Source: Heptranchias perlo
Taxonomy: Eukaryota
NCBI RefSeq assembly: GCF_035084215.1
Contig: NC_090339.1
Location: forward strand, 31,930,001-31,994,000
DNA: 64,000 nt
Reading direction: 5' to 3'
Shown: positions 31,576-63,827 of the stretch, in pieces
Layout of the letters: the number at the start of each line of letters is the position of its first letter
Numbering within the stretch: the stretch's first letter is position 1
Notes under the pieces: generated by a model
Database searches by the model: none
Seen by the model: only the letters and a program-made list of their open reading frames with translations
What the model was told of the DNA's origin: nothing
Program-made: the position numbers and the translations under genes

Positions 31576-31815
31576 CTTGCCAGACCTAGTCAGGTCATTG
31601 AAGCGCTTGCGGCACTGCTCCCAAGTCCTTGGGGTGTTGCACCTGCTGCTCACCTCCGCCGCCACCTCGGCCCATGCCTTCCTGGTTGCGGCGGCAGGGA
31701 ACTTGCGCCCATCTTCTGGGAAGAGTGTTTCCCTCCTCCTCCTCACGCCCTCCAGCATCAGCTGCAGTGCCAGATCTGAAAAACGGGGCGCAGCCTTTCC
31801 CCTTTGTTGAGCCAT
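31576..31815 (-). CDS. Harbinger Myb/SANT-like DNA-binding protein, exon 1
   Basis: MAQQRGKAAPRFSD...AWAEVAAEV...RTWEQCRKRFNDLTRSGK, then gtgagt donor (phase 0). Confidence 0.9.
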
Positions 31816-36195: not shown

Positions 36196-36694
36196 CTACC
36201 TGGAGGTAGGCTGCTTGTGCTGTTTTAATAATATTCTGGGCAGTACATTCCACATACAACTCTATAATTTGAGCTCTGCATTGGAACTAGCAAGCATCAC
36301 TCCTATTTGGTGACATAATTAAGAACTATGATTTATAATTTTGAGTGTGATTCTGCTGCTAATGGTAGATTCTCTATTGATAAAATGACTATCCTAATAT
36401 CAACTGAATAGTACACTTATAGCCCTTAAACGTCCTCCAGTCCTTTTATCAGGATCATAGAATTTTTTTATAACTAAAATTAATGATAATATTTACCATA
36501 TTTTTAAAGACAGGATAAATTTTCCGTTTAAATATACACTGGGACCTATTTGTGGACCCAAGAACATTGGGTGAAGTATAGGTTCAGTTGGTGATACGTG
36601 GAGTCAAATGGTCATTAACTTCTCAGTAAAGTACTAAGTAAGGAATTTTAGAATGGTCACGAACATAGTGCATATCAGGATATCAAATAGGTTA

Positions 36695-37652
36695 TCCTGG
36701 ATATCATTTATTAATGTCTTAGATAACACAATAGAGAGCCGTATATCCAAGTTTGCCTTTGACACAAAGATTGGTGGCATAGTAAGTAGTGTAGACGGGA
36801 GCATAAAATTACAAAGAGACATTGATAGAATAAGTGAGTGGGCAAAACTGTGGCAGATGGATTTCAACACAAGTAAGTGTGAGGTCATCCATTTTGGACC
36901 AAAAAGGGATAGATCAGAGTATTTTTTAAATGGTGGAAAGCTAGGAATTGTGGAGGTCCATAGAGATTTGGGGGTCCATGTACACAGATCACTAAACTGT
37001 AGTAGTCAGGTACAAAAAATAATCAAAAAGGCCAATGGAATGTTAGCCTTTATAACTAGAGGGCTAGAATATAAAGGGGAGGAAGTTTTGCTACAGCTGT
37101 ACAAAGCCCTGATTAGATGACATCTGGAATAACGTGTACAATTCTGGGCACTGCACCTTAGAAAGGATATATTGGCCTTGGAAGGAGTGCAGCCCAGATT
37201 CACCAGAATGTTACCAGGGCTCCAAGGGTTAAATTATGAGGAGAGATTACATAAACTAGGCTTGTATATCCTGGAATATAAAAGGTTAAGGGGTGATTTG
37301 ATTGAGGGTTTTAGAATTTTGAAAGGACTTGATAGGGAGAAACTTTTTTCACTGGGAGACAAGGGAACATAACCTTAAAATCAGAGCCAGGCCATTCAGG
37401 AGAGAAGTTAGGAAACACTTCTTCATGTAAAGGGTGGTAGAAGTGTGATACTCTCTCCCATAAAAAGCAGTAGATACAAGGTCAATTAATAATTTTAATT
37501 CTGAGATCGAAAGATTTTTGCTAGCCAATGGTATTAAGGGATATGGAACCAAGGTGGGTGGATGGAGTTAGGATACAGATCAGCCATGATCTCATTAAAT
37601 GTTGGAAATGTCTTGAGGGGCTGAATAGCCTACTCCTGTTCCTATGTTCCTA
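36695..37652 (+). mobile_element. CR1 LINE 3' fragment
   Basis: ISKFAFDTKIGG, LQRDIDRISEWAKLWQMDFNTSKC, LYKALIR; ends in cctactcctgttcctatgttcc. Confidence 0.92.
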
Positions 37653-39043
37653 AGGGTAGGCTTGTTAAGTCAAATGGCTTTTTTCCTGCTCCTAAAATTT
37701 CCTCTATCTCCAAGGGTCTTCCTATAGCAATGAAAGCGTGACCCTCTCATGAAAATCACTAAACTTTAAAACAAACCTCTTTTCATCTGCAATGCTAAAC
37801 ATGCCAAAATATTAAATCAACAGAAAGCTTAATGATTCATTGGGTAAATATACTGTGTTGTGGCACTGCACCATTCACACCAGAAAGATGTCAGCCTTTA
37901 TCCTCGGTCTGTGCTGAGTTAACTGATTTCAGCTGAAATGGTAGTAGGGGTGTCACAATTCCCTCAATCCAGGGAGGGGAATATTCAGCTAGGCCTCCTG
38001 CCCCTGACCACAATCTAGTGTTCTCTGGTGGAAAATGCACTTGTATGGCTATCAATGAAAAGCAACATAATTCTTAGTTGTGATGCCCCACTGCAGTTAT
38101 ATAGTTTGCTGAAACTCATTGTTTAGGTTTACAGATGAGGTACTGGAGGACCACGGACACGGTGGAAACATACCCCAGCATCAGTCAACACCTTCAGGAA
38201 AGGGAGAACTTTGGGAGAAAGTAAACTTTTTAATGTCAGCACATGTACATGGTGGATAAACAGAGTAAATGAAAAGTGATATTCTATGTAGTAGGCAACA
38301 TTTTTCTGTGAGAGTAATAAACTTAATTTTTTCCCCTTTCTCCTACTTAGTCTGTCCTTGCCTTGCACCATTCAGATACGAGAGCATACCTCCAGTAATA
38401 TCCTTCTTAAACTCCCTACTGGGAGATACACTAATGCACCCTAGAAGTGATTCAGGGTCTAATTTTCCTTCTCTCCTTTGGGAGGAGATGGCCTACCTGT
38501 AGTCTGTACTTCATCATGGGATAGCTCAGATTGAAAATGTAGCATGGGAGGGTATTACACATGAAAACAGTCTTTTATAAAGCAATGTGTTGGTCCTCCA
38601 ATGTGCGGGGCTACCAGGCACTGTTGAAAATGCCCCTTTAAGATAATTAAGAATCCAATTAGCTCTTAACTTGATATTTTCCAAACTTTGGGCAATATGT
38701 CACTACCTGCACTTCCATCCCACACGAAAAAAAAGAAAAAAAGTCAATACCGGATTTATAACTTCTTTATAATAAAAAACGATACCTCCGATTGAACAAA
38801 CTATTATAGTGCAGCCATTCGAATCCAAAAAGTTCATTAAATGATGTCAAATGAAAATGAAGGTACGTCACGTACAACTGATTGATTTGATGACATCACA
38901 CGAGAACACCCTTAATTAGGAGATAATTTGCACAAGCTGTTTTATGGAGCATTCAGAGAAACGCTTTTGAGTTAATAGTGCCTTGGAGTTATGGTCCCAT
39001 CTGGTCTGCAGATACCTGTACGGTGATACCTTTAGGAGCTAAC

Positions 39044-39380
39044 ATGTGCTGGGTTATGATTTGGAGTCGCCACGTATTCCGTGTCTTGATACTTTTACTG
39101 GAGCTTGTAGCATTGCATGGAGGTGCTGGGGTGAGTGAAGAGCCTGGCGGTAGGGAGGTAAGGGACTTGGGTCCCCTAATCGAGATGTTGGCTGGGAAGG
39201 TCAGCCCCCGCCCTCCGCTGCTCTCTGAACAGAAGGTAGATGATCAACACATGGAATACATGGCCTATCTCTACAAACAGTCGGCAGATCAGGATGGGAA
39301 GCCCAAAACTAACCGGACCATTACGACCAACACCATTCGGCTGGTGAAACCCAGCACGAGTGTCTTGCTCGCCAGCTCAG
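39044..39380 (+). CDS. BMP15: Bone morphogenetic protein 15, exon 1 (signal peptide and start of prodomain)
   Basis: MCWVMIWSRHVFRVLILLLELVALHGGAG signal peptide; MEYMAYLYKQSAD..G.PK..NTIRLVKP prodomain motif; CAG/gtaaat donor, phase 1. Confidence 0.9.
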
Positions 39381-40604
39381 GTAAATCGCCCCCTTTCTCG
39401 AAACTTGGCTTCGAATTCAAAGGAAGCTTTATTTTTTCCTTGCCTTAATCTCACCTTTTTAAATTTCCTTTTGGCGAATTATAATAGCCTAAGTATCATG
39501 GTTACTAGTAAGACTAATATTGTCTTCCGCTTTATATCGGAACTCGTGGTTTTACAGAATCTGAGCGATTTAATTTTGACTTAATCCCACGAACACATTC
39601 TCTTTACAAAAATTATTCAATTTTGCAGCTGATTTTTTTAAGAGATGAATGACCTGTTAAGATTTTTGCTTCCATGCAGTTTTTTAAAAAAAAATTCAAG
39701 TACCCAAACTGAGTTTTGTGTGATAATTACATTTTCGTAAGCAAAAGATTGGCCATTCATACCCAGTTTCCTTTTGCGAGATCGCCTGCATTTGCTCCTT
39801 TTTCTATTGGCACCCTCCCAATAGGATAGTACTCTAATCGCCTTTTTCTTGCTCCTGGCCCAAGCTAAGAACTTGTTCATGTGTTCTACCTCACCTTGGT
39901 ATGTTTAAGCGTACCACTGGTCCTTTTGTAAGGTGGTTAGTGGGAGGGAGTGACTGATTTCGAGCTCTCGGAGGTCACTGCACTACAGACCATCTGAAAT
40001 TGAATTGCAGCTTCATTTTTAATGCAAAATGTATTTTTGAGGATGGCTGTGATGGCTGTGAGCTGACATGGCTTTTATGGAGCTTGCTGTCTGATATCTT
40101 GATCAAGTAGTGGATACTCTAGAGGATTGGGGATGAAGTAGATTTTGAAGCTTCTGGCTTCAATAGTCCATTTAATATCTGGAAGAATGCAGGCATGGTG
40201 GTCATAGTGGCATAAATGTGAAATGCTCAAACAAGTGCTTTGTCCCCTAGGTGTGTTAGACTTTTCTAATTTATACCAATATAAATTACATGCTTGAAAC
40301 AGTATAATTTGGCTTGTATTTTGAATACTAAGTTGAAGTCCATTTCAATAGAGACTGAATAGTTGTGGCTGATTTTATTTTTGTACTTTTTTTAAGAGCT
40401 CAAAAAAATCATAATTTCTGAGCTTCCAGCAAAGAAGCCCATTCTTTGTTTAACCTTGTACTTCTGATTTTAGCTAGACAGGGGCAACATTGCTGGCTCT
40501 TTAAAGTTTCTACTAGAAAGAGAAATTGGAGGGAGAAAAGGAAGAGTAGGGACATTAAATTTATGAATGAATGGTAAAATGCTAATATCTTTTTTTTAAT
40601 GCAG

Positions 40605-41479
40605 GTCCTTGGCATGCCCATCATGTTCAATACAATCTGCACTATCTTCCAGAGCTGGAACATTTGATTAAAGTTGTTGTTGTGTATTTGCACAGCCCTC
40701 TTCCCAATCACTTCCAGGTTTCTTGTGAGATCAAATGTCTCCTTGCAAATTATGTTAACCTAAACTCTATTCAGAATGCCACTGCCATAGAATTGCCAAT
40801 CAGGTTTGTGCTAAAGCTGAATGACCAATGGGCAGAAGCTGACATAACTCCATGTGTCTTCCTCCCAACTGGTAATTCTGTGAAGAAAGTAGATCTACAC
40901 ATCAGTTACAAGTGTGCTGAGCTAGTAAAGGCCAGTCAAAGAACTCTGGACAAAAAAAGGAACTCTGCTGTTCATCTGCAAGTGCCCTCACTGCTGCTGT
41001 ACTTAAATGATACTGATGAGACTGCACATCAAAGAAGGGAGAAACGGGAAAAGCAAATTCCAGAGAGGCCATCCAAATCCCGTGTACTGTCTAGGAAGCC
41101 CCGGCAATTAAGTAACATTGGCTCAGACATTCCGAACTATCTCCATAAGAAAAGTCCTCCAAGGAACAAATGCAAACTCCATTCATTCTGGGTAAGCTTT
41201 GAGCAGCTGGGATGGGATCACTGGATTGTGGCTCCTCACAAGTACAATCCAAAATTTTGCAGGGGAGACTGTCCTAGAATTCTCAACTATGGGTACCACT
41301 CTCCAAACCATGCAATAGTGCAGAATTTTATCAATGAAATTGTTGATAAAAATGTCCCCCGTCCATCTTGTGTCCCCTTGAAATACAGCCCAATTAGTGT
41401 TCTTATGAAGGAGCAGAATGATCACATTGTATACAAGGAGTACAAGGACATGATTGCAGTGTCTTGTACATGCAAATAG
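40605..41479 (+). CDS. BMP15: Bone morphogenetic protein 15, exon 2 (prodomain, RKPR furin site, TGF-beta mature domain)
   Basis: ttttttaatgcag acceptor in phase; PSLLLYLNDT; CKLHSFWVSFEQLGWDHWIVAPHKYNPKFCRGDC...SPNHAIVQ...RPSCVP...CTCK, with Ser replacing the dimerisation Cys; SHROOM4 synteny. Confidence 0.95.
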
Positions 41480-45690: not shown

Positions 45691-45787
45691 GTATATATGT
45701 CTTTCTGTGGAGATGCCGGTGATGGACTGGGGTTGACAATTGTAAACAATTTTACAACACCAAGTTATAGTCCAGCAATTTTATTTT

Positions 45788-45832
45788 AAATTCACAAGCT
45801 TTCGGAGGCTACCTCCTTCCTCAGGTAAATTT
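45788..45832 (-). ncRNA. Minimal type I hammerhead ribozyme motif (antisense twin)
   Basis: Reverse strand reads aaatttac-CTGAGGA-a-ggagg-tag-cctcc-GAAA-gc-tt-gtgaattt. Confidence 0.72.
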
Positions 45833-45871
45833 ACCTGACGAAGGAGGAAGCCTCCGAAAGCTTGTGAATTT
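45827..45871 (+). ncRNA. Minimal type I hammerhead ribozyme motif
   Basis: Stem I aaatttac/gtgaattt; core CTGACGA plus an extra A; stem II ggagg-aag-cctcc; GAAA; palindromic AGCT in place of stem III; CUU cleavage triplet. Confidence 0.75.
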
Positions 45872-45989
45872 AAAATAAAATTGCTGGACTATAACTTGGT
45901 GTTGTAAAATTGTTTACAATTGTATGTCTTTCACATAACTTATCAAACGTGCCATTATGCCTAAACAAAAAGTAACTGCTGAACTGCAT

Positions 45990-46344: not shown

Positions 46345-47865
46345 CATTCTACCATAAATTCCAGCTCCAGTTTGGCAAGTCCGAAGTCATCATCTTCGGT
46401 CCCTGCCACAAACCCGGTTCCTTCACAGATTGCATACCCTTCCCTGATGCAGCCTCAGGCTGAGTCAGACTATTCCCATACTTCCCTGTAACAGCCTCAG
46501 GCTGAGTCAGACTATTCCCATCCTTCCCTGATGCAGCCTCAGGCTGAGTCAGACTATTCCCATACTTCCCTGTAACAGCCTCAGGCTGAGTCAGACTATT
46601 CCCATACTTCCCTGATGCAGCCTCAGGCTGAGTCAGACTATTCCCATACTTCCCTGTAACAGCCTCAGGCTGAGTCAGACTATTCCCATACTTCCCTGAT
46701 GCAGCCTCAGGCTGAGTCAGACTATTCCCATACTTCCCTGTAACAGCCTCAGGCTGAGTCAGACTATTCCCATCCTTCCCTGATGCAGCCTCAGGCTGAG
46801 TCAGACTATTCCCATCCTTCCCTGATGCAGCCTCAGGCTGAGTCAGACTATTCCCATACTTTCCTGATGCAGCCTCAGGCTGAGTCAGACTATTCCCATA
46901 CATTCCTGATGCATCCTCAGGCTGAGTCAGACTATTCCCATACTTCCCTGTAACAGCCTCAGGCTGAGTCAGACTATTCCCATCCTTCCCTGATGCAGCC
47001 TCAGGCTGAGTCAGACTATTCCCATACTTCCCTGTTACAGCCTCAAACTGAGTCAGACTATTCCCATACTTCCCTGTAACAGCCTCAGGCTGAGTCAGAC
47101 TATTCCCATACTTTCCTGATGCAGCCTCAGGCTGAGTCAGACTATTCCCATACTTCCCTGATGCAGCCTCAGGCTGAGTCAGACTATTCCCATCCTTCCC
47201 TGATGCAGCCTCAGGCTGAGTCAGACTATTCCCATACTTCCCTGTAACAGCCTCAGGCTGAGTCAGACTATTCCCATCCTTCCCTGATGCAGCCTCAGGC
47301 TGAGTCAGACTATTCCCATCCTTCCCTGATGCAGCCTCAGGCTGAGTCAGACTATTCCCATACTTTCCTGATGCAGCCTCAGGCTGAGTCAGACTATTCC
47401 CATACATTCCTGATGCATCCTCAGGCTGAGTCAGACTATTCCCATACTTCCCTGTAACAGCCTCAGGCTGAGTCAGACTATTCCCATCCTTCCCTGATGC
47501 AGCCTCAGGCTGAGTCAGACTATTCCCATACTTCCCTGTTACAGCCTCAAACTGAGTCAGACTATTCCCATACTTCCCTGTAACAGCCTCAGGCTGAGTC
47601 AGACTATTCCCATACTTTCCTGATGCAGCCTCAGGCTGAGTCAGACTATTCCCATACTTCCCTGATGCAGCCTCAGGCTGAGTCAGACTATTCCCATACT
47701 TCCCTGTAACAGCCTCAGGCTGAGCCAGACTATTCCCATACTTTCCTGATGCAGCCTCAGGCTGAGCCAGACTATTCGCATCCTCACTACTTTGTTCTAC
47801 TCTGAATGGAGTTTCAGACCCCGTATTCTCCCCGTCACTAAGATTGCCTATTCCATCTCTGCAAC
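46345..47865 (+). mobile_element. L2 LINE fragment hosting the minisatellite
   Basis: Flanks aagtccgaagtcatcatcttcggtccctgccacaaac and gagtttcagaccccgtattctccccgtcactaagattgcctattcc align with consecutive parts of the L2 at 4436-4640. Confidence 0.75.
46433..47777. repeat. 42-bp minisatellite, 32 units
   Basis: Unit cttccctgatgcagcctcaggctgagtcagactattcccata; units counted from the 14-aa periodicity of the antisense ORF. Confidence 0.97.
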
Positions 47866-48348
47866 TTTGCTTGCCCCTGCTCCTGTACCTGGTTGGGAGA
47901 TATGATGTGGTGGATACTAAGCAGTTTGATCCTCTACAAAAAAAAATTGTAATTTTTTGCTGCAGGTAGGAGAAATTATAAATAATTTTGTAGTACTTAT
48001 CGAGATGACGAGTATGTAAAGATCGAAAGTTGCTTCCCTTCTCCTCTTCTCTTCCCCCCACCGCCCCCAAAAGGAGTATTGACCTTTTAGTCTTTTAATA
48101 AACATCAGGAGCTTGCATGTAGAGGATCACAAATTGCAGTCTGTGCCCTACAGATCAATGGCACTTCACTGTTGGTTTGCCACTGAAATAATTCATGCTA
48201 ACTAACTGAAGAGTAATTGTTAATTAAATAATCATATAAATTACTGTTTCTTCACTGCCTAGTTATGCAAACTGAGCAGAAATAATCTTTGTCATCTGTC
48301 TTTGTGTATATATAGCGCAAACTCTCAACTGTAACTGAACAGAATAAC

Positions 48349-49507
48349 ATGGAGAAGTATGAGAAAATCATGACAATAGGAAGGGGTGCAAGTGCAGAGG
48401 TCCACTTGATGAATAATTTAGAAACAAAAAAGCTGTATGCTGTCAAAAGAATAAAGATTGATTCCTCACTCAAGACTAGAACCAAAGAAGCTGTTATGCA
48501 GGAAGCGACCATTTTGACCAGACTCAAGCACCCTCACATTGTCACTTGTCATGAGTACTTCATTGACCTAGAGGAAGAGTATGTCTTCATAGTGCAAGAT
48601 TATTGTGATGGTGGCACTTTGGATGACTTAATCCAGTCTAAAAAAGAGAAGGGGTATTTTGCTGAGAAGGATATTATGCAGTGGTTTGTTCAGTTAGTTA
48701 TGGCCATTCAGTATATTCACTCCCTGAAAATTCTTCATCGAGATATTAAAACATCCAATGTCTTTCTTACAAAGAAAGGTACAGTTAAACTTGGTGATTT
48801 TGGAATTTCTAAAGTAATGACCCACACTTTGGATATGGCAAGTACCTGTGTTGGCACACCATGCTATTTGAGCCCAGAACTCTGTCAAGATATTCCATAC
48901 AGCTCCAAGTCTGATATCTGGGCACTTGGTTGCCTTTTATTTGAACTTTGTGCTTTGAAACCTGCCTTTCATGCAAGGAACCTAATTAGCTTGTTTTATA
49001 AAATTGTAAAAGGAGAGTATGCCTGTGTACCCAAGAGCTATTCTAAAAACCAGCATAATTTGATCAAAAACATTCTCAACCAGTGCCCTGAAGAAAGGCC
49101 TAGTGCCAGCATTATCCTCAAAATACCTTATGTCCAAGAACATCTCAAGCTCTTCATCAGGGATCAGGAATCTCAGCTTACAAAATATCATTCTCTGAAG
49201 CATCTACACTCTGCCAAGTCGGAGAGTGATGAGCTCACTGGTGACCTACACAAATCTCTGCATCTTTGTGAAGGGGGCATGTGTACTAGGAACATCAAAC
49301 CAGACTCAGCACCACATTGCCTTAGTGATGAAAATGTAGAGGAGGCAGTCTCGGAGGTGTGCGAAAATATGGAGCCCAGTGACGAAGAAGATAAATGTAA
49401 TTACTCTGACGACTTTGATCAGGATAGTTTGTCCTCTGTAGAAGAGGATACAGAGGATGAAATATCAGTACCACCTCCAAGTGTTGAAACCCCTGAAGAG
49501 ACAGAAG
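48349..49507 (+). CDS. nek12: NIMA-related serine/threonine kinase, coding exon 1 (entire kinase domain plus acidic linker); nek12 assignment tentative
   Basis: [62 protein letters not shown] are NEK1/3/4/5-type motifs; GAAG/gtagtt donor, phase 1. Symbol recalled from the fish-annotated gene, not verified. Confidence 0.85.
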
Positions 49508-51991
49508 GTAGTTTGACATTTAGAATCTTTTGATACTTGTTTAATCCCCAATGTAACTGAATACTTCCAGTGTTGTCACCAGGTGTTTTTAGTATATTGT
49601 TACCAGTATGCCAAAGCAAATATTGCACCTAAGCTAATACTTTTTAATATTAATCCAATATATTTCTTAGTAATGCTCTTAATTCATCACCTCAAATCAT
49701 TCTCACCACAGCCATCATCAGTGAGAAACCAGTAAATCACCAGTACTTCATAGTGTTATAAAAACAAATCACATTTATGTAGTACTTGCTACGTTAGACA
49801 TAACTAAGTACTATTTCTGGCACCACCCAAGTTTGGAAGAAAATCTAAAAACACTGTTGTGTTTTCATATTATGTCCACTTAAACTGAACATTTCACACC
49901 CTATGCTTTACTGCAAGCCTGGTGACAATGCTATTGAAGTCTTCCGTATTGCAATAGCTAATGTCTTGTTAAAAATCCAGATTCTACACTTTTGTCATTT
50001 TATTTTCTCTCTCTTGATGTTCTGGCCAATATTCATCCATTAACCAATAGCATCAAAAAAACCCATATGAATTGTTGGTTAATCTCATTGCTATTTGTGG
50101 GATCTTGTTAAGCACAAGATGGCTGCTGCTTTTATCCACATGATAGTAAATGGACAATTCTATGTGAAGATCTTTGGGACACTTATGAGAAATGTGATAA
50201 GATGCTACATAGATACAAGTTGTTTCTATGAAGTTGTCATACTTGCCCCCAAATGATAGAAATGCTGTCTATAGCTGATGCCTAAGAGGGGGTGAATGCC
50301 CTTTCACTCCCAGTGGGTAGTGCTTGGCCTCTGGATGGAACAGTTGAGGTCAGGCATTGCAGGCACAATCCCACATCCAACCACTCCATGTGCAATGTAT
50401 TTTAGTCCAATGTACTCTGCCACCATATTGCCTCACCTGAAATTTCCATTTTAAATTTCATTGCTATTCATGGTTCCACTTCTTGCTGTCATGTGTTGAA
50501 CAGACAATAGTAATGGTTTGCTTGAGATTCACCAATGATTACATCAGTGGAACAGTTGGGAGCAGGAGTAACTAAAGAAAAAGGGCAATACAATCTGAAG
50601 GAATATACTTGAGGATTGTTTGTCAAAGTGTTAAGATTAGTGATTTACTTCATGAATTTATCTAAAAGGGAAGTTTCATTTGTGATTTGCATCTTAGCCA
50701 AACTATAACTAAGCTCTGCAATCCTTGCAAACAGGGTAAGCATGTACTTTTTATTCAAACATTTCAAAAGGGATTAAAAGATAAATTTCTTCTGATTTGC
50801 TGCTGTTCATTTTCTTATTCCAGCAAGCCCCATTCCTTGCTTCCTCTTATTTACATTTGTCTTCTTTAGTTCAAATTACTGTAGGAGGCAGGGTTGATGG
50901 TATGGCATTATACAATGATTGACAGGTGTCCCATATCAGCAATACATATAAAAAATATTAAAATACTTTGCACCTGGAAGGGAAAAAGCACTCTAAAATG
51001 CATGGATAAGAATTGCTATTTATTAGAGATTCTGCCCACTTGTTTCCAGGAAACCCTGCATTATCTGAGCTTAACAAGCAGTGGGAAACTTACCAGTGCT
51101 CTGGGCTGGTAAGCTGCATGGTTTAGACTGTTAAACTACAACAGTAATCCTATGCATACTTGGATTTGTAAGCCTTGGCAGTTGGCAATCCGTGTCTAAA
51201 TTCTTTGGGCTTGGGTATGTGGAGTTTGTCCCTATGGAGAAAAATGTGTACTCCATATTAGGCAAACAAACTACTTACATGGGTTTTTTAGATTAGTTTG
51301 TTGAACATAGTGCATGTCAGACCCCCGCTCCCCCAAGAAAAGTTTAAAGAAATACAGTAATTAATGTAAAAGAGAGGAAAGCTAAACAGAATGAATCGTC
51401 ATAGCTACTATCTATTTATTTTCCTCACATGCTAAATTACCTATTCTACTGTTGGTACCTTCTGGGCAAAAATTCCTTCACTTATGGATGCACTTTATTG
51501 CATGTATAGACACTGATGCACAGGAACACTGGCCGAGAGGACATTATCGTACAATTCATCTGGTGTTCAGCTAAGTGGAAATTAGGATTGAAGCAGCTTT
51601 TCCCCACCTTCCCCTCAGCTGTTACCTTCACAAAGTTACCATGCAGTCCTTGGCTAGGAGCAACTGGAGTCCATATATGGGTGCCAAAATAATTTGGTCA
51701 GCTGGTTCTTATCGTTAAGCAGCTGCAAACTGTACAACCCACTTCTGTGCCAGGTGCAATACAAAGCCATTTCTGTATGTGTGCACAGAGGTACTTGAGG
51801 TAGGTGTGCCATGCTTAAGTTTCCTTTTAAAAATATACCATTTAGCAAACCTGGAGCCATCTACCGCTAAGATGGCTCCATCTATCGCCATATAATAGAA
51901 GGTGTGAGTTGGATATCCTGAGAGTGTATGAATGAGTTTTGACCAAGTATAGATACCGGTTATAAACTTTGTTTATATTTATGATTGGTAG

Positions 51992-52192
51992 CCACTGATG
52001 AGGTGGACTTTATAGAGTACCCAGATGACTTTGAGGAGGGAGAGGACGATGTTGCGGACATAGTATGTAACGCTCGCACTGCCATAGAAATTGAGGCTAA
52101 TAATGAGGCATTTCGAGAGGAAGGTGATGGTCAAGAAGAAGCTGCTGTCAACCTGTCCACCACCATTAAGATTCTGCGAGAGAGGTGTATAG
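51992..52192 (+). CDS. nek12: NEK-family kinase, coding exon 2
   Basis: ttggtag acceptor; TDEVDFIEYPDDFEE...KILRERCI; G/gtagga donor; phase 1 at both ends. Confidence 0.78.
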
Positions 52193-53549
52193 GTAGGAAG
52201 GCATATGAAATTTATTTTTATTCTGCAATGGAAAAGAGAAAGCCTGGATCCTGGCTTACTGTCCACCAGTTAGTACATGGGTTGTTAGATCATTACGTTA
52301 TATGATTGCATCAGAATGTTGTGTGGCTTAAAAAAAAGTATAAATTTGTGCAACGGGAACTCCAGAGTCATTTCTGTTTTTTTTCTTCGGGTTCCTTTTT
52401 TTCCTGCGTTAATTTAGATGAGAAGCAGAGAGAATACTTTATATTAATATTCAAAGTTTGTGAGGTTATTTAAAGTCACCCTAATTATTTTCTCCTTTGA
52501 GTCTCTCCCTGTTATACACTAACCAGCTGAGAGGACAGACTGGAGACCTGTTACCAGGCCTTCACCAATACCGTACTATCGTTGGTTCCTAAAAGTGGCA
52601 AAAGAGCAACAGGAGATGACTGACCCTCTGATTGTCCTTCTCTCCCTTGCCTACGCTTCATCCTCCCTTGTGACTGTACAACTCGCAGTGTGAGAAGTCA
52701 TGGATGAACACCTGCATCTTATTATGTCATGATATGATATTTTAAAGATCCAACTCAATGTGCAATCCTCAAATCAATTTAAACCTGTTTGTTTTCTCAG
52801 TATATGTGATACTGAGCCATTCAAACCAGAAGGTCCTAGATTCGGTGCCCACCTTAACTGAGTTGGCTGATCTCAGTTAAGCCAGCAGTTAATACTACAA
52901 TTAGCCTCTGTGGTTAGGGAAAAATCAGCTTGGATTCCCACTCCTAATTGCTACTCTGTGAAGCCTGCTGGCATATACATGTGTTTGTGGAAGTTGAGTG
53001 AGGGCAGGATGTCTTCCACAGTTGAATAGCCTGCCAGAACTCACTGTCTAGACTTATTCGTGAAAGGTGGACACTTGGGTGAGGTAGCGTTATCAGCTTT
53101 GGATGCATAATCCCACAAATAAGGATAAGAAGGCAGAACATTTTAAAAAAATGATTCATGTATTTCGAACTTGAGATCTGTGTTTCAATGTGATTATCCT
53201 TTTGGAATGGGAGGATTCTCTAAAGTAATAGAGGTTTAAGAAACCAGTTTAAATTAGCAGCACAGAATACTGGTCTTATTTATAGACCATTTTGCTCTAT
53301 AGGTTCCTACAGTTGTATTGGACAATACTACACGCTTTTGTAACTGTGTCTAAAGCTTCCAAGGCTATTTGTGAAAGGTTACAAAATTTCCTGCTCCATG
53401 CATTGGGTACAAAATGTTCTGGTGAAAGTTGTGCTGACTGTGGTGCACAGGAAGCTATTTGATTATGGCAGGTATATTTCTAGGAATACTTCATGCTTTC
53501 ACATGGAAAGAAGATTTAAATCTATTTTTATACACTTAAAAAGCATACA

Positions 53550-53870
53550 GTTATCTTTCACCTTTCACATAACAAAATGCCCCAAGGTGATTTGCAAGAA
53601 GGAGCAATGGATGCTGAGCAAGAAGTGAGAGAGAAGTTAGGAGAGGTGGCTGAAAGTACGTCAAGGAGATCTGTTTTGAGGACTGGGTAAGCGATAGCAA
53701 GATGAAGAGATCTAGGAAGGGTATTCCAGATTGCTCTGGTGTGGTGGCTGAAGACTCTGTCACTGAGGGTTAAAGGGGGGTTGGGGCAGAAAATGCACAA
53801 TACATCAGAGTTGGAAAAATGAGGGTGCTTACTTAGATGTAGGGTTGGAGAAGTCTTGACAGACTGCACA
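53550..53870 (-). mobile_element. L2-type LINE 3' fragment
   Basis: Reverse strand has gtcttcagccac...tctggaatacccttcc and an L2 tail. Confidence 0.65.
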
Positions 53871-55413
53871 TGTAGACTGGACAGCAGTATTTGAAATGTT
53901 TTTGTTAAAGTGCACTGTATTTTTTCAAACGTGATGATTCTTCTCCCCCCATCCCCCCAATCTTAATACTGTTCTGACACAGCACTGAGGGGCTCAGGTG
54001 GCAAAAGGCTTTTAATTGTGAATTCCTCAGTTTTAGTTTGACTTTTTCTTCCACTGTTGACTAATTATTCTTTTGTTTGAGGTGTCTGCCTTAAGTTGAC
54101 TTGAACTGGCGAACAATATCAACTTTGGGTGCCTTATCTCAAAACTCCACCCTTCCAAAAAACTTGCACTTGGGCTCTGTGTAACAGATGATCTGATATT
54201 AGGAGCTTTGATTAGATTTTCCTTTTAATAAAGGTTTTTGATCAGTCAGAACCATTGTACTTATGTACTTGTAAAAACTGGATTGGACCCCATAGTGTTT
54301 TGTTTGGCTGGTTACGAAAGTTTTTCATTGGGATTTGTTTGTGAAAATCTGACCCATTTTTCCAAGAATACTCCTAATATCACCACTTTCTTTCTCCCAC
54401 CCCTATATAAATACCATCTGATACAGAAATCTGAGTCCACATAACACATTCTGCCTTTTCATGTATCTTTTGTGAACTTTAAAATAGATCCATCCTCTTA
54501 CAAGGGAAAAGGTGCAGGGACAGTGCCTTTTTAAAGCTACTCATCTTGTGATAGATATGAAACTGAATGTTGTAACTGTGACACTCTTCAGTTACATGTT
54601 ATATAAGTACTGCTACCATAAACCATTTTGTTGCAAGATAACAGACCAGTGAGCCATTGTTAGGGAATTTCTGAGAATTCTGCATAACATTTGAGCAGAG
54701 TAACAAATACATCATGATAATCTCCATAGTAGCTGAGGAAAGGAATCTGCACTGTTTACAGTGACTTTCTAAATTCTGGTGGAGGAGGAACACGGTCAGA
54801 TCTTCTGCCGCCCTCACACATCAAGGGGGTGTGCCTGGGGAGTTCCCAGGCTGCCCCTGGAAATACCACCCATTGCGCCCTTTTAAGGCCTCAGTGGAAC
54901 TCACACCAGCAGAGAGGTGGCTTGAGTCATACTGAGGGCCTTAAGAAGACCCCAGACATTTACGAGGGAAAAGTAGTTAACTCTGGAGGGAATCGATTGC
55001 CTTCCCCAAGAAGTCCACTTGCTCCAATGGGTGCAGAAGATTGAAGAAATTAAATTTTCCATTGGGCTCTTGCCAGGCCTCCTCTCCACCGTCAGATTCT
55101 GACTGATGCTTCGGGGAGGATGCTGCTGAGGCTCCCTGGCAGGCACAATGTGCCTGCTGCAGTTATGCAAATGACCCTGTCCCCACACTTTGGGATGGGG
55201 TCCGCATCTTTGGTCATGGGCAGAAGGGGTTGTAGCTCTGCTGCGCTTGCGTTGGTGGAGTGGATATCAGCAATTTTAGGTCTAATGCATTTACGGTTGG
55301 AGTGAGCACTTTAGAAATTGTTCTTGAATTGATATTTGATCCATTTGTTTTTATCTTTAACAGCAATCAGCCCAGTTTGAAACCGAATTATTGACAATGT
55401 TCTGTGTTTACAG

Positions 55414-55568
55414 ATGATGTTGGTCAGACTCTTTTCCATGAAATTGCTTCTCAATTTCTCAAGGGCTTGACCCCCGAAGATCTCCAACCTCAGTTTGAGC
55501 ATCGGTTGGGCTCAGATCACTTGGAGACTTGCTACATTATCTTCAACATGGATCAAGAAAATGCTTGA
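55414..55568 (+). CDS. nek12: NEK-family kinase, last coding exon
   Basis: gtgtttacag acceptor; DVGQTLFHEIASQFLKGLTPEDLQPQFEHRLGSDHLETCYIIFNMDQENA-stop in compatible phase; total 504 aa. Confidence 0.75.
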
Positions 55569-57753
55569 CTCAGTGTACAACTGCAAAGGATGAACTGAAT
55601 CATTGCTGTTTTTTATTTTTTAAAAACGCCAGCGCTACCTGACTGATTCTTGCAAGTACAACTGATTGATGAGCACTCCATTATACATATTGTTATTGAG
55701 TCTCTGAGCTACCTGCCACACTCTGTTGCCCCTGTGAGCACGACAACATCTCTATCTTTTGAGCAGGAGTTTTGCGCCCTTTCTCACTTTTTTGTGGACA
55801 GTTGGTTACCACGTGGTTGTGAAATATTCTAAATTTAAGGGAAATATTACACTTCTGTATTTTATGCAGTCTTTCTCTTGATGTCTCCCATTGCTTTTCC
55901 CAAGTTTTGTTTGGTATTATTTTCCCTTCACTTCGGTCTGCACATTTCCCCTAAGCGTTGACAGATGACTTGTGCCTAAACTTTTGCCTATGGCACTATG
56001 AATCTGGCATGTTAGGAAGTCAAGGATGTTTCACCAATTTCATTTTTCCTTCCCTCTTTGGGAAAGCTTCACCCACTGGTGCCTCAGCTTTGACTGCGAG
56101 CTTATGCTGCAGGCATTGCAGGGGCTGTGGGGACAGGACACTGGACTAATTTGAAAAACAACTAGATACTGTAATGAGAAGAAGGTAGGGTTGATGGTCT
56201 GGAAGGATGAGATCAAATGGACTGAAGGCTTTCTTCATTCTAACCTGTTTTGTGAATGAAAGTTTAGATGGGGAGTATTTGAAAAAAAATTATCCCATTT
56301 TTATAGCAAAAAATATACTTTTACCAGATATTTCTATAACTATTTTTTTTAAAAAAGCATAAATTTTCCTACGGGCATAGAGACTCTTTAATAGGACCCC
56401 TTCCCTGCTAGGCTGTTCAAACATCCTGAGAATTCCAGTTTAGAAGAGCCTGGTGGCAGCTTCAGAGCCGCTCAATCCTGTGAAATCATGATACAGGTTG
56501 GGAAACTTGGATTCCCAGCTTGTAGCCTGGTTTCCTATGGTTGGGAGGTGGTGGGATTTTGCAGTGGCTTTCTAGTCAGTATGAAGTTGAACCCTGTAAT
56601 TGGTATCGGTGGAGCAGCCAGGCTTGAAGGTCTCTGTGCAGGCAGGAAAATTGACTTTAAAAAAAGTCAAATAAATATCTAGTAAGAGTATTTTGAAAAA
56701 GATAGAGTAGTTTGGATAAAAATGTGGAATACTTTGAACAAAAAGTACCACCCTGCCCCCTCCCTACACTTTCTTTTCCCTTTATTATATGGTGGTGCAG
56801 TGGATTAGCATATTATCCTTTATCTCTGGAAAAATGGATTCAACTCAGGCACAGACATGAAAGTCTTCTGACACTTTATACATCCCACATTAAATGTTTT
56901 TGAGATAGTGTTAACTCCATTCCTAGTGGGCCACACCACAAAACTACAAATTAATGGTAACCAGAGTTAGAGGCCACACGATTGTTGGTGTAGGTATTGG
57001 AAATATTGCACTAAAGCAGTAGGAGATGCTGTCCTGAGGTTGGGTTAAGGCACAATGTTGGTGTGCATGAAGTCTTTTTCTCCATAGCTGACTAGGAGTT
57101 CTTAATGCTCACCATGGACTCATTGCATCAAGGATGTTCCAGTATCCTGAGATTGTTGCCATACTGTTTTTTTTCCCCCTCGCTCCTCATTTTTATCTTC
57201 ACTCCGCCTACCTGTTCACTCTGTTTCATTCCTCTTCTGCTCTTGTCAACCTCAGTGATATGCTGCACTATGGGCCTTAGCCCTTCACTGAGGTTTCTTC
57301 ATTAAAAATAGTTCTCAGCACTTGCTGAAAAATCTCAGAAAAAACAGATGACAATATCCTTTGTTGTCCCATGTAGCTGGGATTTAACCATTCAACAAAA
57401 ACATTTTGGAAACTTCCATTTTCATTTTCACATTTGGGTGGGTGAGGGTAAACTTGAATTGAGAATTAAGACTACACAACATTTAGTTTCATATCTATCC
57501 CAAGATTCTCAAAGTGGGAAGCATGTTAAAAAGGAAAATTTTTCATTCCAAGAGAATGGGCTTTAGGTTAAAAGGTGTAGTTCAATGAACTTTTTGTCTT
57601 AATGTTAGTGGATAATGAAGTAACCGTTTTAAAAACCTGTGGGGATGATTTCCTCTAGTTGCTTTGTGTAGCTTCTTCATAAATTAATGAGGGATGATTT
57701 CCTTTATTTGGTAAATTCTAAGTATGTTCTTTTTGAATATATAGCCATACATA

Positions 57754-58469: not shown

Positions 58470-59431
58470 ATAGTGACTGGCAGAAATTATCTCCCCTTTC
58501 TGAAGAATATTTGAAATCCTATTTAATATGAAAGTTCTTTAATTTAATCATGACTAAAGTAATACTCCTGGTGAATGTCTGTAATGGTGTTTGACACATT
58601 GTATTGTTAAATGTTTTAAGAATGTATAATTTTAGAGCAGGTTGCAATATAGGAATTGTATAATTTGATAACTTTAATACACAGCCAAACCTGGCTAGCA
58701 AAGACATTTTAAATACAGTGTCTCTTTTCATCAGACAAGTAGTGATTGCATTTTTTTTACATAAAATCTTTGATATCCTCTGGTTAGGTAGTTTATAAAC
58801 TCTTTAAGTTAGTTCAATCAAGCTTCATGTGCAGCAACCACTATCTTGTTGAATCGTGTATGAATGCAGATATCATTTGATATAAAGATTATAATAGATT
58901 TGATCAGGTTTAGGAAATGTATATATTGCAAAAGGCCAAATTCAGCAAATACTAGTGATGGCCTTAGTAGTGATTAAAAACATTTTAAGAATTGGTGAGG
59001 AGAGGAAAAACATATTTTACAATTTCAATTTTTATTTTATAATTCTTAAAAATTATTTGGTAGTACTGATTGAAAGGCTCTTGTGGATTGTTTAATAGTA
59101 TCAATTGAAAGGGTTTCACAGATTCTCCAGCCCTCCTTTAAAAAAAATCAAAGGAAGAGTATATCCCTTTTTGATGTGGGAATCAGCTGGGCGGGGGGGG
59201 AGACAAGATGGGTTATGACACTCCTACAGTTGGGGTTTGAGGAAGGATACTTTTACCTGTATTGTGTGGGTGTATGAAATGTGTTTTCTACTAAAATTAG
59301 TGCATGTGGTTAAAATGGTACCACCGTAGCCACACCTGTGGCGAGTCAGTAATTTCTATTGTCAACACTGCACTAAATAATATAACACACTCAGTACATA
59401 TAACAAACTACCATATTTGAATTGAAACATG

Positions 59432-61425
59432 GGGCTCGATTTTACCAGTGGGTTTCGTGTGCGTTTCCAGCGGGGGGGCCCCGAAAATCCCGATATCCAG
59501 GCACGTGACCGGATCGCGCCACGATCCCGCCCACTTCCGGGTTCCCCGATGACGTGTGGGGGTGCGTGCGCAGCCCCCGCTGGTGGGAATCCCGCAGGCA
59601 ATTAAAGCCAGCGGGATGCCACTTGAGTGTATTTATTTTGCTTGTTCAGGTCATTAACTGACCTGATTAAGGGACTGTGTGTGATTTTGGAGAAACATGG
59701 GACTGTATCACACACTGGGGGAAACAGTCCTAGTTGAACTGGACGTGTTGCAGCCGTCAGCCTGTGGCAGCTGCAAAGGTCCATTTGACAGTTGGGAGGT
59801 GGGGGGAGACCCTCACCCATTGCAGGAGGCCGCTCTGTCACTTGGGACAAAGTGTGGCCTCCACCACCCCCCACCTGACGGTCAAAGTCACCAACCTGCA
59901 CACTCACCCCGGGGTCCGGAGACATATGCCTACCTTGCGGACCCCCTCAGATGTACATATTGCGGATGGGGGCCGCCGTAGCTGCAGTCATGACCTCCTC
60001 GGAGGGCGCCAGCCTCGCCATCCACGCCGTCCACCTCTGAAACGTGGAGCTCCACAACAGAGTGCTGTGACACATCCACCTGTACAGCAGGAGGGAGGGC
60101 TACCGCAGAGAGAGACGCGTCGCAGAGGGCACTACCCTCGCCACAGGGTCCACAGACCGAGGCGCAGCTCCCCGGACCTCTCTGAGCAGCAGTGCACACG
60201 GAGGCGCAGATTCACTCGACATGTAGTTGTGGATATCTGCAGCCTCTTTCATGCCGAGCTGCTCCTGGCTGGCCCCAGCACCATCTGCTTACCTGTCGCT
60301 GCCAAAGTCAGCACTGCCCTCCACAACTTCTCCTCCGCATCCTTCCTGGGTGCAGCCGGGTATACCGCCGATGTCTCTCAGTCGTCTGCGCGGAAGAGCC
60401 CTGCAAATACACCTGCACCTACTCTGCAGTAACACAATGGGTGGCATCAGTGGTGGGTCCTCATAGTGATACCCAGGAGCAGGCATTATTGCACAAAACA
60501 GACAGGATTCGCGGAGACATGGCAGTGGTGGTGCCAATATAATGTGTGATGTGAGTTGTTCTGAAATTCAATATAGGTAACACCCATGACAAACCCTCAA
60601 ACACCCTTGTGCATCCCCTTCATGCTCACGACACGTTTGCCTTACGCTGCCTACTGCACATATGTGATGCATGCCCTGTGGCTGCAGCACAGGTGGTGGC
60701 AGGTTGAGTGAGGCTGGCCGTGAGGGAGATGCACGAGAGGGTGCGTATGGGATAGAGCCATGAGATTATGTGAGGATAGGGTTGCGTGTTATTGGCGGGG
60801 TGAGTACTCGCGAGGTGAGTAGGTGCAGGTAAGATGAGGATGGGGTTTGAGTGGGTATGAGGGGTGATGTGACAGAGTGGTGTTGGCGGTGCCGAAGGAG
60901 ATGTGGGGTGGGGGCAGTGTTGTGGCAGACGGAGTGTAGGGGAAAGACTACGTGTTCTCACTGTGGCTGACCTACTGCGGTCATTGGAGCGCCTCCTGCA
61001 CTGTATGCAGGTGGGCGATATGTTGGTGGTGCAGGTGACCTCCTCTGCCACCTCGAGCCAGGCCTTCTTGGTGGCAGAGGCAGGCCGCTTCCTCCCGCCC
61101 GCCGGGTGGAAGAGCTCTGTCCTCCCCCTCCTCCTCACCCCATCTGATGATACCTGGGGTGAGGCATCATTAAACTGGGAGCAGCCTTCCCCCTGGGCTG
61201 CTCCATGCTGTAATGTGTTCTATTGGTTGCAGCATCTGTCAGTGGAGGACTGCCCCTTTAACTAGAGAGCCTCCAGCTGACAGATCGTACTGCGCATGCG
61301 CAGCCCGCCCGACGCGCAGACCAGCAGCGCGGAGCCCGGAGGAGCAGGTAAGTGGATCCAATTAGTGTGTTGCCTGCTACGATCGCGCGGGCAACCCACT
61401 AATTTCACCGAGCTTGTTAACCACG
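59432..61425 (+). mobile_element. Non-autonomous internally deleted Harbinger, copy A, lacking its right terminal ~50 bp
   Basis: Left TIR gggctcgattttacc; transposase 5' remnant (LPVAAKVSTAL) and Myb/SANT exon 1 remnant (KKAWLEVAEEV); stops abruptly at gttaaccacg. Confidence 0.92.
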
Positions 61426-61437
61426 GCTGTTAACCTG

Positions 61438-63483
61438 GGGCCCGATTTTACCAGGCCTGCGGGTTTCCGGCGGGTTGGGTTTCGGGAGCGTGGTTAACAC
61501 GCTCGGTGAAATTAGTGGGTTGCCCGCGCGATCGTAGCAGGCAACACACTAATTGGATCCACTTACCTGCTCCTCCGGGCTCCGCGCTGCTGGTCTGCGC
61601 GTCGGGCGGGCTGCGCATGCGCAGTACGATCTGTCAGCTGGAGGCTCTCTAGTTAAAGGGGCAGTCCTCCACTGACAGATGCTGCAACCAATAGAACACA
61701 TTACAGCATGGAGCAGCCCAGGGGGAAGGCTGCTCCCAGTTTAATGATGCCTCACCCCAGGTATCATCAGATGGGGTGAGGAGGAGGGGGAGGACAGAGC
61801 TCTTCCACCCGGCGGGCGGGAGGAAGCGGCCTGCCTCTGCCACCAAGAAGGCCTGGCTCGAGGTGGCAGAGGAGGTCACCTGCACCACCAACATATCGCC
61901 CACCTGCATACAGTGCAGGAGGCGCTCCAATGACCGCAGTAGGTCAGCCACAGTGAGAACGCGTAGTCTTTCCCCTACACTCCGTCTGCCACAACACTGC
62001 CCCCACCCCACATCTCCTTCGGCACCGCCAACACCACTCTGTCACATCACCCCTCATACCCACTCAAACCCCATCCTCATCTTACCTGCACCTACTCACC
62101 TCGCGAGTACTCACCCCGCCAATAACACGCAACCCAATCCTCACATAATCTCATGGCTCTATCCCATACGCACCCTCTCGTGCATCTCCCTCACGGCCAG
62201 CCTCACTCAACCTGCCACCACCTGTGCTGCAGCCACAGGGCATGCATCACATATGTGCAGTAGGCAGCGTAAGGCAAACGTGTCGTGAGCATGAAGGGGA
62301 TGCACAAGGGTGTTTGAGGGTTTGTCATGGGTGTTACCTATATTGAATTTCAGAACAACTCACATCACACATTATATTGGCACCACCACTGCCATGTCTC
62401 TGCGAATCCTGTCTGTTTTGTGCAATAATGCCTGCTCCTGGGTATCACTATGAGGACCCACCACTGATGCCACCCATTGTGTTACTGCAGAGTAGGTGCA
62501 GGTGTATTTGCAGGGCTCTTCCGCGCAGACGACTGAGAGACATCGGCGGTGTACCCGGCTGCACCCTGGAAGGATGCGGAGGAGAAGTTGTGGAGGGCAG
62601 TGCTGACTTTGGCAGCGACAGGTAAGCAGATGGTGCTGGGGCCAGCCAGGAGCAGCTCGGCATGAAAGAGGCTGCAGATGTCCACGACTACATGTCGAGT
62701 GAATCTGCGCCTCCGTGTGCACTGCTGCTCAGAGAGGTCCGGGGAGCTGCGCCTCGGTCTGTGGACCCTGTGGCGAGGGTAGTGCCCTCTGCGACGCGTC
62801 TCTCTCTGCGGTAGCCCTCCCTCCTGCTGTACAGGTGGATGTGTCACAGCACTCTGTTGTGGAGCTCCACGTGTCAGTGGTGGACGGCGAGGCTGGCGAT
62901 GTTGTGCGCCCTCCGAGGAGGTCATGACTGCAGCTACGGCAGCCCCCATCCGCAATATGTACATCTGAGGGGGTTCGCAAGGTAGGCACATGTCTCCGGA
63001 CCCCGGGGTGAGTGTGCAGGTTGGTGACTTTGACCGTCAGGAGGGGGGTGGTGGAGGCCACACTTTGTCCCAAGTGACAGAGCGGCCTCCTGCAATGGGT
63101 GAGGGTCTCCCCCCACCTCCCAACTGTCAAATGGACCTTTGCAGCTGCCACGGGCTGACGGCTGCAACACGTCCAGTTCAACTAGGACTGTTTCCCCCAG
63201 TGTGTGATACAGTCCCATGTTTCTCCAAAATCACACACAGTCCCTTAATCAGGTCAGTTAATGACCTGAACAAGCAAAATAAATACACTCAAGTGGCATC
63301 CCGCTGGCTTTAATTGCCTGCGGGATTCCCACCAGCGGGGGCTGCGCACGCACCCCCGCACGTCATCGGGGAACCCGGAAGTGGTCGGGATCGTGGCGCG
63401 ATCCGGTCGCGTGCCTGGATATCGGGATTTTCGGGGCCCCCCCGCTGGAAACGCACACGAAACCCGCTGGTAAAATCGAGCCC
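61438..63483 (-). mobile_element. Non-autonomous Harbinger, copy B, complete (2046 bp) and inverted relative to copy A
   Basis: TIRs gggcccgattttacc / ggtaaaatcgagccc with a CTG duplication (61435-61437, 63484-63486); ORF track is a mirror image of copy A. Confidence 0.94.
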
Positions 63484-63827
63484 CTGTTGTTGGGAGAGTA
63501 CCGAGGCAAGTTGTTTCTTGCCCTCTGGCAACGTCCCTTTCCCTCCTACGATCATGACTCCAGCACTGCCTTATTATTTGCCTATGCTTAAGCCAGACCT
63601 CAATGTCTATGTCATGAACCTCAGTATTCTGTATCTATTCCAACAGCACAAAGTAGCATTAGTAGTTTTACATACTACTTCCTGCCCCTGCAACTTTCTG
63701 TCAGTCATTGTTGATGTCTAGAACTATGCTTTAAAAGTCCAAAAAAAGAATTAACCATCACATTCTAACCCTGGGCTATCGGTGCATGAATTAGGCTATC
63801 GGAAATTTGTGGCTTGAAAAAAAGAAA

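Follow-up and report, generated by a model that had tools for sequence, protein, structure and literature searches.

Foldback transposons of the FB/Galileo type are marked by an identical target duplication outside long inverted arms and by several copies that share a centre. Dimers of DNA transposons, as described in Drosophila, form by double insertion and commonly carry junction deletions, and head-to-head P-element dimers were recorded in 8 of 85 strains (10.1101/158386). Mu killer of maize derives from an active MuDR element and is described as silencing dominantly, by perfectly matching 21–22-nt RNAs and a plant pathway (PMC3440606; 10.1101/2020.01.09.900282). Within the PHIS superfamily of transposons, the PIF/Harbinger group is described as having a TWA target duplication and the NuwaI group a CWG target duplication (PMC4482050). 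No Harbinger element was found in the elephant shark, and other cartilaginous fish were suggested for examination (PMC9179366).

The window analysed here, a 64,000-nucleotide stretch of the Heptranchias perlo genome (NC_090339.1, positions 31,930,001 to 31,994,000), has no Rfam match and carries a 4-kb inverted repeat. Its arms (59432–61425 and 61489–63483) are 98.8% identical over 1,995 aligned columns, differing by 19 substitutions and two short indels. Transposase-side termini lie at the outer ends on both sides, with both outer terminal repeats intact, and folding of the 303 nt around the centre gives z = −38.9 against 100 shuffles. An earlier note on this DNA described two ~2-kb, internally deleted copies around a 63-bp spacer. 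The inverted, near-identical arms are borne out, but the spacer is not unique loop DNA: 51 of its 63 bases (61438–61488, + strand) are the Myb-side terminal repeat and subterminal sequence of the right-hand element, unpaired in the left copy, and the remainder is a 12-bp junction (61426–61437) made of 9 bp plus CTG. Only this junction is unique in the interval 61415–61445 that had been called a unique junction; the rest is element sequence.

The right-hand element is a complete non-autonomous unit of 2,046 bp (61438–63483, transposase reading on the − strand). Both its terminal repeats are present, matching each other at 16 of their first 17 bases, and it is flanked by a CTG target duplication with an inner copy at 61435–61437 and an outer copy at 63484–63486. 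We rejected a reading in which the terminal repeat begins with four G, because the flanks then mismatch. The left-hand unit, also non-autonomous and Harbinger-type (59432–61425, + strand), has its transposase-side terminal repeat outermost, next to an ATG flank, and lacks 51 bp at its Myb-side end. Because the right unit is complete with CTG on both sides and the left unit has ATG at its outer flank, we favour a double insertion: in this cartilaginous fish, two copies of a long-decayed, non-autonomous element of Harbinger type (PHIS superfamily) probably make up an inverted dimer that has since lost sequence from its middle. As in older dimers, there is a small deletion at the junction, where the left unit ends exactly 51 bp short. 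The left unit's inner target-duplication copy is lost and the right unit's CTG is present at the junction; the absence of any surviving partner to the left arm's target duplication is a point against two insertions.

Each copy also lacks bases that the other has kept: 10 bp after 60009 are missing from the left copy and 9 bp (60020–60028 in the left copy) from the right. The Heptranchias perlo protein P0004, colinear with the two arms combined, polarises both of these reciprocal losses. The losses argue against a read artefact and are consistent with two separate copies. Both indels sit in a single slippage-prone 9-bp repeat, so they could postdate a duplication, which likewise speaks against two insertions. 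Long inverted repeats are difficult to sequence, and a folded-back long read or a mis-join of two loci might be suspected, but an assembly artefact of either kind is barely credible. The window contains no N, the internal terminal repeat and the coherent target duplication occur once each, the indels make sense against an outside protein, and the 19 substitutions carry a CpG bias, with 8 of the 12 transitions between the arms falling at CpG-type sites (P = 0.005). Relative dating of the arms gives no single order, as outgroup polarity and CpG logic conflict at three sites.

A different origin by aberrant transposition or re-replication would have the right element insert its transposase-side end nearby on the sister chromatid, after which 1,994 bp were copied and the broken end was sealed 12 bp away from the original; the arms would have been identical at first and have diverged where they now lie. 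It accounts for arms that are 99% alike, for a left unit with a clean terminal repeat outside and a break with possible filler inside, and for the same terminus at both outer ends, as described for Ac/Ds composite insertions in maize (10.1101/2020.01.07.897926). The 12-bp junction repeats an 8-mer located 8 bp ahead of the left copy's break; judged post hoc, it is perhaps templated filler and not flanking genomic DNA. However, the reciprocal losses would then require two separate deletions at one spot afterwards, and one of the two copies here is complete and carries a target duplication of its own, whereas both Ac pieces are fractured in the maize cases described. At 7e-10 per base per generation, the rate in another shark species (PMC10587355), 19 substitutions over two 2-kb arms also translate by our own arithmetic into palindrome survival for about 7 million generations. 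We regard this origin as unlikely, although it deserves some weight.

The whole 4-kb structure might instead be, or have been, a foldback unit that moves by means of the two termini at its outer ends. Those terminal repeats are intact and the outer flanks, ATG and CTG, are one base apart, but the flanks are not identical, the right unit has an exact CTG match at its inner end, and with 0.5% divergence per arm any one 3-mer is unlikely to have mutated. This makes a mobile foldback very improbable.

The intact relative reported 27 kb away is present as an apparently intact autonomous element (27913–32065, + strand) with terminal repeats and TGT/TGT flanks; we preferred these, as an exact match, to GTG/CTG with a shorter repeat. 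It encodes a DDE transposase (+ strand, reading frame to 29678) and a Myb/SANT gene of three exons (31815 to 29976, − strand; open for 465 codons, exon ends read by eye), with PF13359 and PF13873 above cut-off. The element thus shows the hallmark of the PHIS superfamily, a DDE transposase and a Myb/SANT gene between terminal repeats, and both arms of the inverted repeat hold remnants of this arrangement. Two more Harbinger remnants lie at 25.9–26.7 kb and 33.6–34.0 kb, so the family is dense here. The "oocyte gene" said to lie beside the intact relative is a TGF-beta/BMP-family gene (38927–41479), which we take to be BMP15-like.

As had been proposed, the arms carry transposase 5′ and Myb/SANT 5′ sequence, both matching the element at 27913–32065. 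The left arm has a decayed transposase 5′ fragment of about the first 143 codons (59966–60389, + strand; mirror ~62525–62949, −), frameshifted by the 10-bp loss and lacking the DDE domain, and the right arm a decayed, frameshifted Myb/SANT exon 1 (61708–61950, + strand; mirror ~60964–61206, −). In tblastn the transposase pieces are 60–64% identical to the intact element (residues 1–145 and 29–145) and the Myb/SANT exon 48%. The best protein matches are shark and ray transposases. Overall, identity between the arms and their intact neighbour is about 73%, confirming the visible divergence described before, and the difference is decay on the arm lineage: the arm has 29 private residues per 100, the neighbour 3 and P0004 4 (P = 2.6e-6), and dN/dS is 0.66. 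Arm transposase changes fall 14/23/20 by codon position, and 11 of 39 conserved columns are broken in the arm against 4 and 1 in two coding relatives. A near-identical coding "sister subfamily", suggested as the main target of the locus, is therefore unlikely to exist, although the arm N terminus is closer to P0004 than to the neighbour. P0004 was matched to the arm transposase by local search. A word-indexed protein search missed it, so the blanks from that search carry no weight, whether for the arm transposase fragment (0 of 1,460 candidates) or for the 197-residue Myb-containing frame (0 of 234). HMMER with the arm Myb piece, against a library of one protein per 50% cluster, gave 11 matches, all at most 52% identical, and no close coding relative.

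We suggest the following history for the inverted dimer. As the arms show, an internally deleted lineage shed the DDE domain, the bulk of the Myb gene and the two poly(A) signals and afterwards drifted without coding constraint. A transposase inserted one copy at a CTG site, as is evident from the right unit, which still has both ends. A second, slightly different copy may have landed close by in inverted orientation, through a local hop or reuse of a favoured site. A toy model with an assumed 4-Gb genome and an assumed copy number predicts <0.1 close inverted pairs among 1,000 randomly placed copies; chance alone therefore requires thousands of copies or local hopping. The resulting near-perfect palindrome would then have lost the 51 bp now missing from the left copy, along with any intervening DNA, presumably yielding a more stable, 63-bp asymmetric centre; in eukaryotic cells a 12-bp spacer is described as stalling replication and a 52-bp spacer as not doing so (PMC7999016). 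Since then the dimer may have remained as a passive stretch of germline-methylated DNA, its arms perhaps converting each other close to the centre. Observed/expected CpG is still 0.57–0.60 in the repeat, against 0.19–0.22 in two flanking stretches, and promoter-like motifs persist, which weighs against taking the passive state as given.

The earlier note had read the locus as a candidate vertebrate counterpart of Mu killer. Its geometry is indeed Mu killer-like, inverted with transposase-side termini outermost at both ends. A killer function is unsupported: the locus joins one complete element that has a target duplication of its own to a truncated copy, rather than duplicating an active element, and the arms are well diverged from the neighbour. 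A transcript across the repeat would form a stem of about 1.8–2 kb; the repeat is probably no more than an incidental source of double-stranded RNA. If either outer transposase promoter fires, the folded RNA would in a vertebrate most likely be edited or degraded, and small RNAs, if made, should chiefly match further non-coding copies of this unit.

The AATAAA that follows the transposase in the intact neighbour (29946) is replaced by non-signal sequence in the derivative, in line with the original observation, and a minus-strand ATTAAA at 29900 is also lost. A + strand transcript from the left arm would meet its first AATAAA at 63278–63283 (mirror at 59632, −), but variant ATTAAA hexamers occur earlier, at 59601 and at 61169, and the latter could terminate the transcript ahead of the centre. 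The first 200 bp of the arms are 83% identical to the intact element, and the outer ends retain promoter-like motifs of ETS, CRE and E-box type in a consensus scan. The kinase gene proposed as a source of read-through is present about 3.9 kb upstream, as a NEK-like gene on the + strand (48316–55570; kinase exon 48316–49533, putative further exons around 51985 and 55414). Its last exon, read by eye, appears to end near 55,570. Read-through from it would cross eight poly(A)-like hexamers, two AATAAA and six ATTAAA.

None of the 1,974 arm 21-mers occurs exactly in the neighbour's transposase coding region, and none in its Myb coding region, the longest exact run being 17 nt; 33 of the 1,974 match its subterminal region exactly. 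Under relaxed PIWI/AGO targeting rules (PMC10338343), 275 of 1,969 26-nt guides (14%) and 81 of 1,974 21-nt guides are predicted to cut the neighbour's transposase coding region, compared with 0 and 0–3, respectively, in five random controls. Some cross-targeting of the neighbour is thus possible under these rules.

These guides, the exact subterminal matches, the late AATAAA and the surviving motifs are what a functional killer locus could draw on, one transcribed in the germline from an outer promoter, dampening the Harbinger lineage in trans through hairpin siRNAs or piRNAs, and retained for that. Substitutions are also fewer in the inner half of the arms (4) than in the outer half (15; P = 0.02, post hoc). 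Yet an intact relative with open frames survives only 27 kb away, and two CpG losses are polarised to the left arm within its first 130 bp (59449 and 59557). Production of piRNAs does not need a hairpin, and the same antisense RNA could come from each solo copy, since its promoters converge and it lacks poly(A) signals. Mu killer silencing uses RDR6/SGS3 amplification, which vertebrates are not known to have. Long hairpins are described as giving rise to siRNAs in mouse oocytes (PMC7930956), but the read-through hairpin model is disputed even in maize (PMC3440606). We therefore consider a killer function very unlikely. Its fullest form is hard to credit: the outer transposase promoter would make a ~3.8-kb RNA ending past 63278, with a ~1.8-kb stem, Dicer or PIWI products would target the subterminal and 5′ transposase sequence conserved in the shark's Harbinger lineage, and conversion around the centre would have preserved the match between the arms over millions of generations. 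If true, one hairpin locus could silence a DNA-transposon family in a vertebrate. Our literature search found no report of a vertebrate hairpin locus silencing such a family, which is weak evidence of absence, and our search of the piRNA literature found no shark-focused paper among those listed.

For the present, the locus is of value as a clean case of an inverted transposon dimer that has lost part of its middle, from a group in which Harbinger elements are little described (PMC9179366). Its arm-specific bases and 12-bp junction make tests of transcription, editing and small RNAs easy.

Among the systems compared, the head-to-head P element and hobo dimers of Drosophila, as presented by McGurk and Barbash (10.1101/158386), share adjacent copies of one family, a junction target duplication and a small deletion that removes a terminus. 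The shark dimer differs in being a vertebrate, Harbinger-type and non-autonomous case, old rather than recent, in which one target duplication survives and nine extra bases separate the copies. With the PIF/Harbinger and NuwaI groups, as characterised in PMC4482050, the family shares the DDE transposase and Myb/SANT gene, terminal repeats and a 3-bp target duplication. The CTG of the right unit fits the CWG of NuwaI, which covers one of three insertions by target site rather than by a tree against named Nuwa families, whereas the neighbour's TGT and the left arm's ATG fit neither CWG nor TWA, and none of the three fits TWA. The Ac/Ds composites of maize (10.1101/2020.01.07.897926) likewise have inverted pieces joined at a break, but are described as recent and as built from two broken copies, without the reciprocal deletions of the shark arms. 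Inverted Alu pairs and the hairpin sources of endo-siRNAs in mammalian oocytes, as described in PMC7930956 and PMC7999016, share inverted copies that yield intramolecular double-stranded RNA if co-transcribed; the shark case is a DNA transposon with 2-kb arms, known here from DNA. Mu killer resembles the shark repeat in its ~4-kb size, inverted arrangement, transposase-side outer ends, internal deletion and neighbouring gene pointing at the locus (PMC3440606; 10.1101/2020.01.09.900282). A silencer of that type would be expected to be a partial duplication without the other terminus, nearly identical to its autonomous target, whereas the shark repeat includes a unit that is complete, having both termini and a CTG/CTG duplication, and its arms are only ~73% identical to the single intact element in the window.

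When compared with itself, the window yields a single dominant inverted match at 59426-63488, the feature that an earlier note had located correctly as a pair of near-identical inverted arms. The arms proper (59432-61425 and 61489-63483) are 98.8% identical across 1,995 columns, with 19 substitutions and two short indels between them, and the right unit contains an exact match for 1,604 of the 1,974 left-arm 21-mers. As RNA, the central 303 nt have a predicted folding energy of -296 kcal/mol (z = -38.9). The proposed 63-bp spacer between two equal copies did not survive analysis. A relaxed terminal-repeat scan of the whole window returns six matches against an expectation of 0.58: the two ends of an apparently intact neighbouring element, the two outer foldback ends, 54355 (a probable chance match) and 61438, which lies inside the supposed spacer. 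The right unit is a complete element of 2,046 bp (61438-63483) with ends that agree at 16 of 17 bases and CTG flanking each side. The left copy (59432-61425), with ATG as its outer flank, is 51 bp short at its Myb-side end. Merely 12 bp (61426-61437) fall outside both copies, and an 8-mer from just before the left copy's break recurs there (noticed post hoc); this junction may be templated filler. The foldback is real, and comprises a complete element and a truncated neighbour copy.

The intact element (27913-32065) is a candidate active shark DNA transposon. Its DDE transposase (PF13359) is open, and its Myb/SANT gene (PF13873) has 465 open codons in three exons, the exon ends being placed by eye. 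The best of the 120 transposase matches listed come from sharks and rays, Heptranchias perlo first, at no more than 77% identity, which makes a cartilaginous fish the very probable host; the Myb product is 87.5% identical to another protein, P0123, over 465 residues. In line with the earlier note, both foldback arms hold the related 5' third of the transposase and Myb exon 1, and the AATAAA of the intact element (29946) has no counterpart in either arm. Of the transposase, the foldback unit has nothing past about codon 143, and the entire DDE domain is missing; most of the Myb gene is missing too, and Myb exon 1 is frameshifted. By the definitions in PMC4482050, it belongs to the PHIS superfamily. 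There the NuwaI target duplication is CWG, and TWA defines the other group; the CTG of the right unit fits NuwaI, whereas TGT (intact element) and ATG (left copy) fit neither. The intact element, with both frames open, has a CpG o/e of 0.67 and unusual TGT/TGT flanks, and older Harbinger transposase remnants lie on either side (25909-26664, - strand; 33618-34014, + strand).

The arms share about 73% identity with the transposase side of the intact element and 64-67% with its Myb side. Over 100 residues aligned with the intact element and P0004, a coding transposase relative from Heptranchias perlo, private changes number 29 in the left arm, 3 in the intact element and 4 in P0004 (60 common, 4 all different). 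Arm differences are distributed 14/23/20 over codon positions, with a dN/dS of 0.66, and in the arm 11 of 39 conserved columns (kept in 35/39 homologues examined) are broken, compared with 4 and 1 in the coding relatives. These are the patterns of decay within a non-coding lineage. The arm N-terminus is colinear with P0004 and not with the intact element, which makes the arm parent a related subfamily. This supports one part of the earlier suggestion that the main target may be a sister subfamily, but any coding member of that subfamily would now be about as distant from the arms as the intact element.

The left arm lacks 10 bp present in the right, and the right lacks 9 bp present in the left. 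Both segments are represented by residues in P0004, so the arms as they now stand are not copies of each other, a point that also speaks against a folded read. Transitions between arms show a CpG bias (8 of 12 at CpG-type sites; expected 27%; p = 0.005), a mark of methylated germ-line DNA. The pair probably arose as an inverted dimer by double insertion followed by junction deletion. Two transposon copies would have inserted close together in opposite directions. A deletion that left a wider, 63-bp centre would make the pair more stable, because inverted Alus in eukaryotic cells stall forks with a 12-bp spacer and not with a 52-bp one (reviewed in PMC7999016). Drosophila DNA-transposon dimers form by repeated same-site insertion, with junction deletions frequent in older ones, and head-to-head P-element dimers are reported from 8 of 85 strains (10.1101/158386). 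Counting against a dimer, a toy model would produce a double-insertion pair by chance only with copies in the thousands, or else with local hopping. Copying through aberrant transposition, like Ac/Ds composite insertions (10.1101/2020.01.07.897926), is an unlikely origin given the reciprocal losses, yet it keeps some weight because the two indels share a single slippage-prone repeat and may have arisen after a duplication.

Substitutions are concentrated in the outer arm halves (15, versus 4 in the inner; p = 0.02, post hoc), and the arms are identical over about 460 bp before 61414. CpG counts (56-60 outer, 40 inner) do not seem enough to explain this imbalance. Arm-to-arm conversion around the palindrome centre is possible; long inverted repeats that stay matched have been reported from nematodes (PMC1803023).

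Hairpin-forming repeats are not rare in the window. An AT-rich 188-bp palindrome (45736-45923) is 97.9% identical to its own reverse complement and is likely to be a miniature inverted-repeat element. At 12379-12550 there is a weaker palindrome. Two inverted remnants, 10416-11027 (-) and 36638-37307 (+), are 68.5% alike and presumably resemble the terminal part of the reverse transcriptase from a CR1-type LINE; no Pfam match was found for the first. A two-exon TGF-beta/BMP-family gene (38927-41479) is probably BMP15-like, judging by its C-terminal motif. Upstream of the foldback, a NEK-like kinase domain is complete in one intronless open stretch of 405 codons (48316-49533). Just upstream of the kinase exon are 32 copies of a 42-bp unit (46439-47781; 92% matches) in a region with a 581-codon open frame (46349-48094, - strand), perhaps a minisatellite, perhaps an exon that encodes repeats.

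It is very improbable that the foldback is a killer locus silencing a Harbinger lineage. Over its first 200 bp it shares 83% identity with the intact element and retains promoter-like motifs, ETS- and CRE-like at the arms' outer ends and E-box-like in the left arm. A + strand transcript would meet its first AATAAA at 63278, but an ATTAAA at 61169 precedes the foldback centre, and two AATAAA and six ATTAAA lie between the kinase's apparent stop (about 55,570) and the repeat. Under the cutting rules used in PMC10338343, 275 of 1,969 26-nt and 81 of 1,974 21-nt guides are predicted to cut the intact element's transposase coding region (five random controls: 0 and 0-3, respectively), and 74 and 16 its Myb gene. 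Mu killer small RNAs, however, match MuDR perfectly and are amplified via RDR6/SGS3 (10.1101/2020.01.09.900282). Exact matches to the intact element number 33 of 1,974 arm 21-mers, every one inside the first 185 bp, and none of the 1,974 falls in its transposase or Myb coding region. Vertebrates are not known to have such an RDR6/SGS3 route, a further point against a killer locus. Maize silencing itself tracked short antisense RNAs instead of read-through in one study (PMC3440606). In mouse, a long hairpin yielded siRNAs in oocytes and was lightly edited in somatic cells (reviewed in PMC7930956). piRNA-type guides would need no hairpin, so solo copies would serve equally.

The foldback is most likely passive DNA. 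No vertebrate Mu killer analogue was found in the literature searched, whose coverage left out most subscription journals. Compared with Mu killer, the foldback differs on two tested features of membership, and it would behave as an inverted-repeat source of dsRNA solely if transcribed. The inverted transposon dimer is an already-known kind of structure, of which the shark foldback is a further case.
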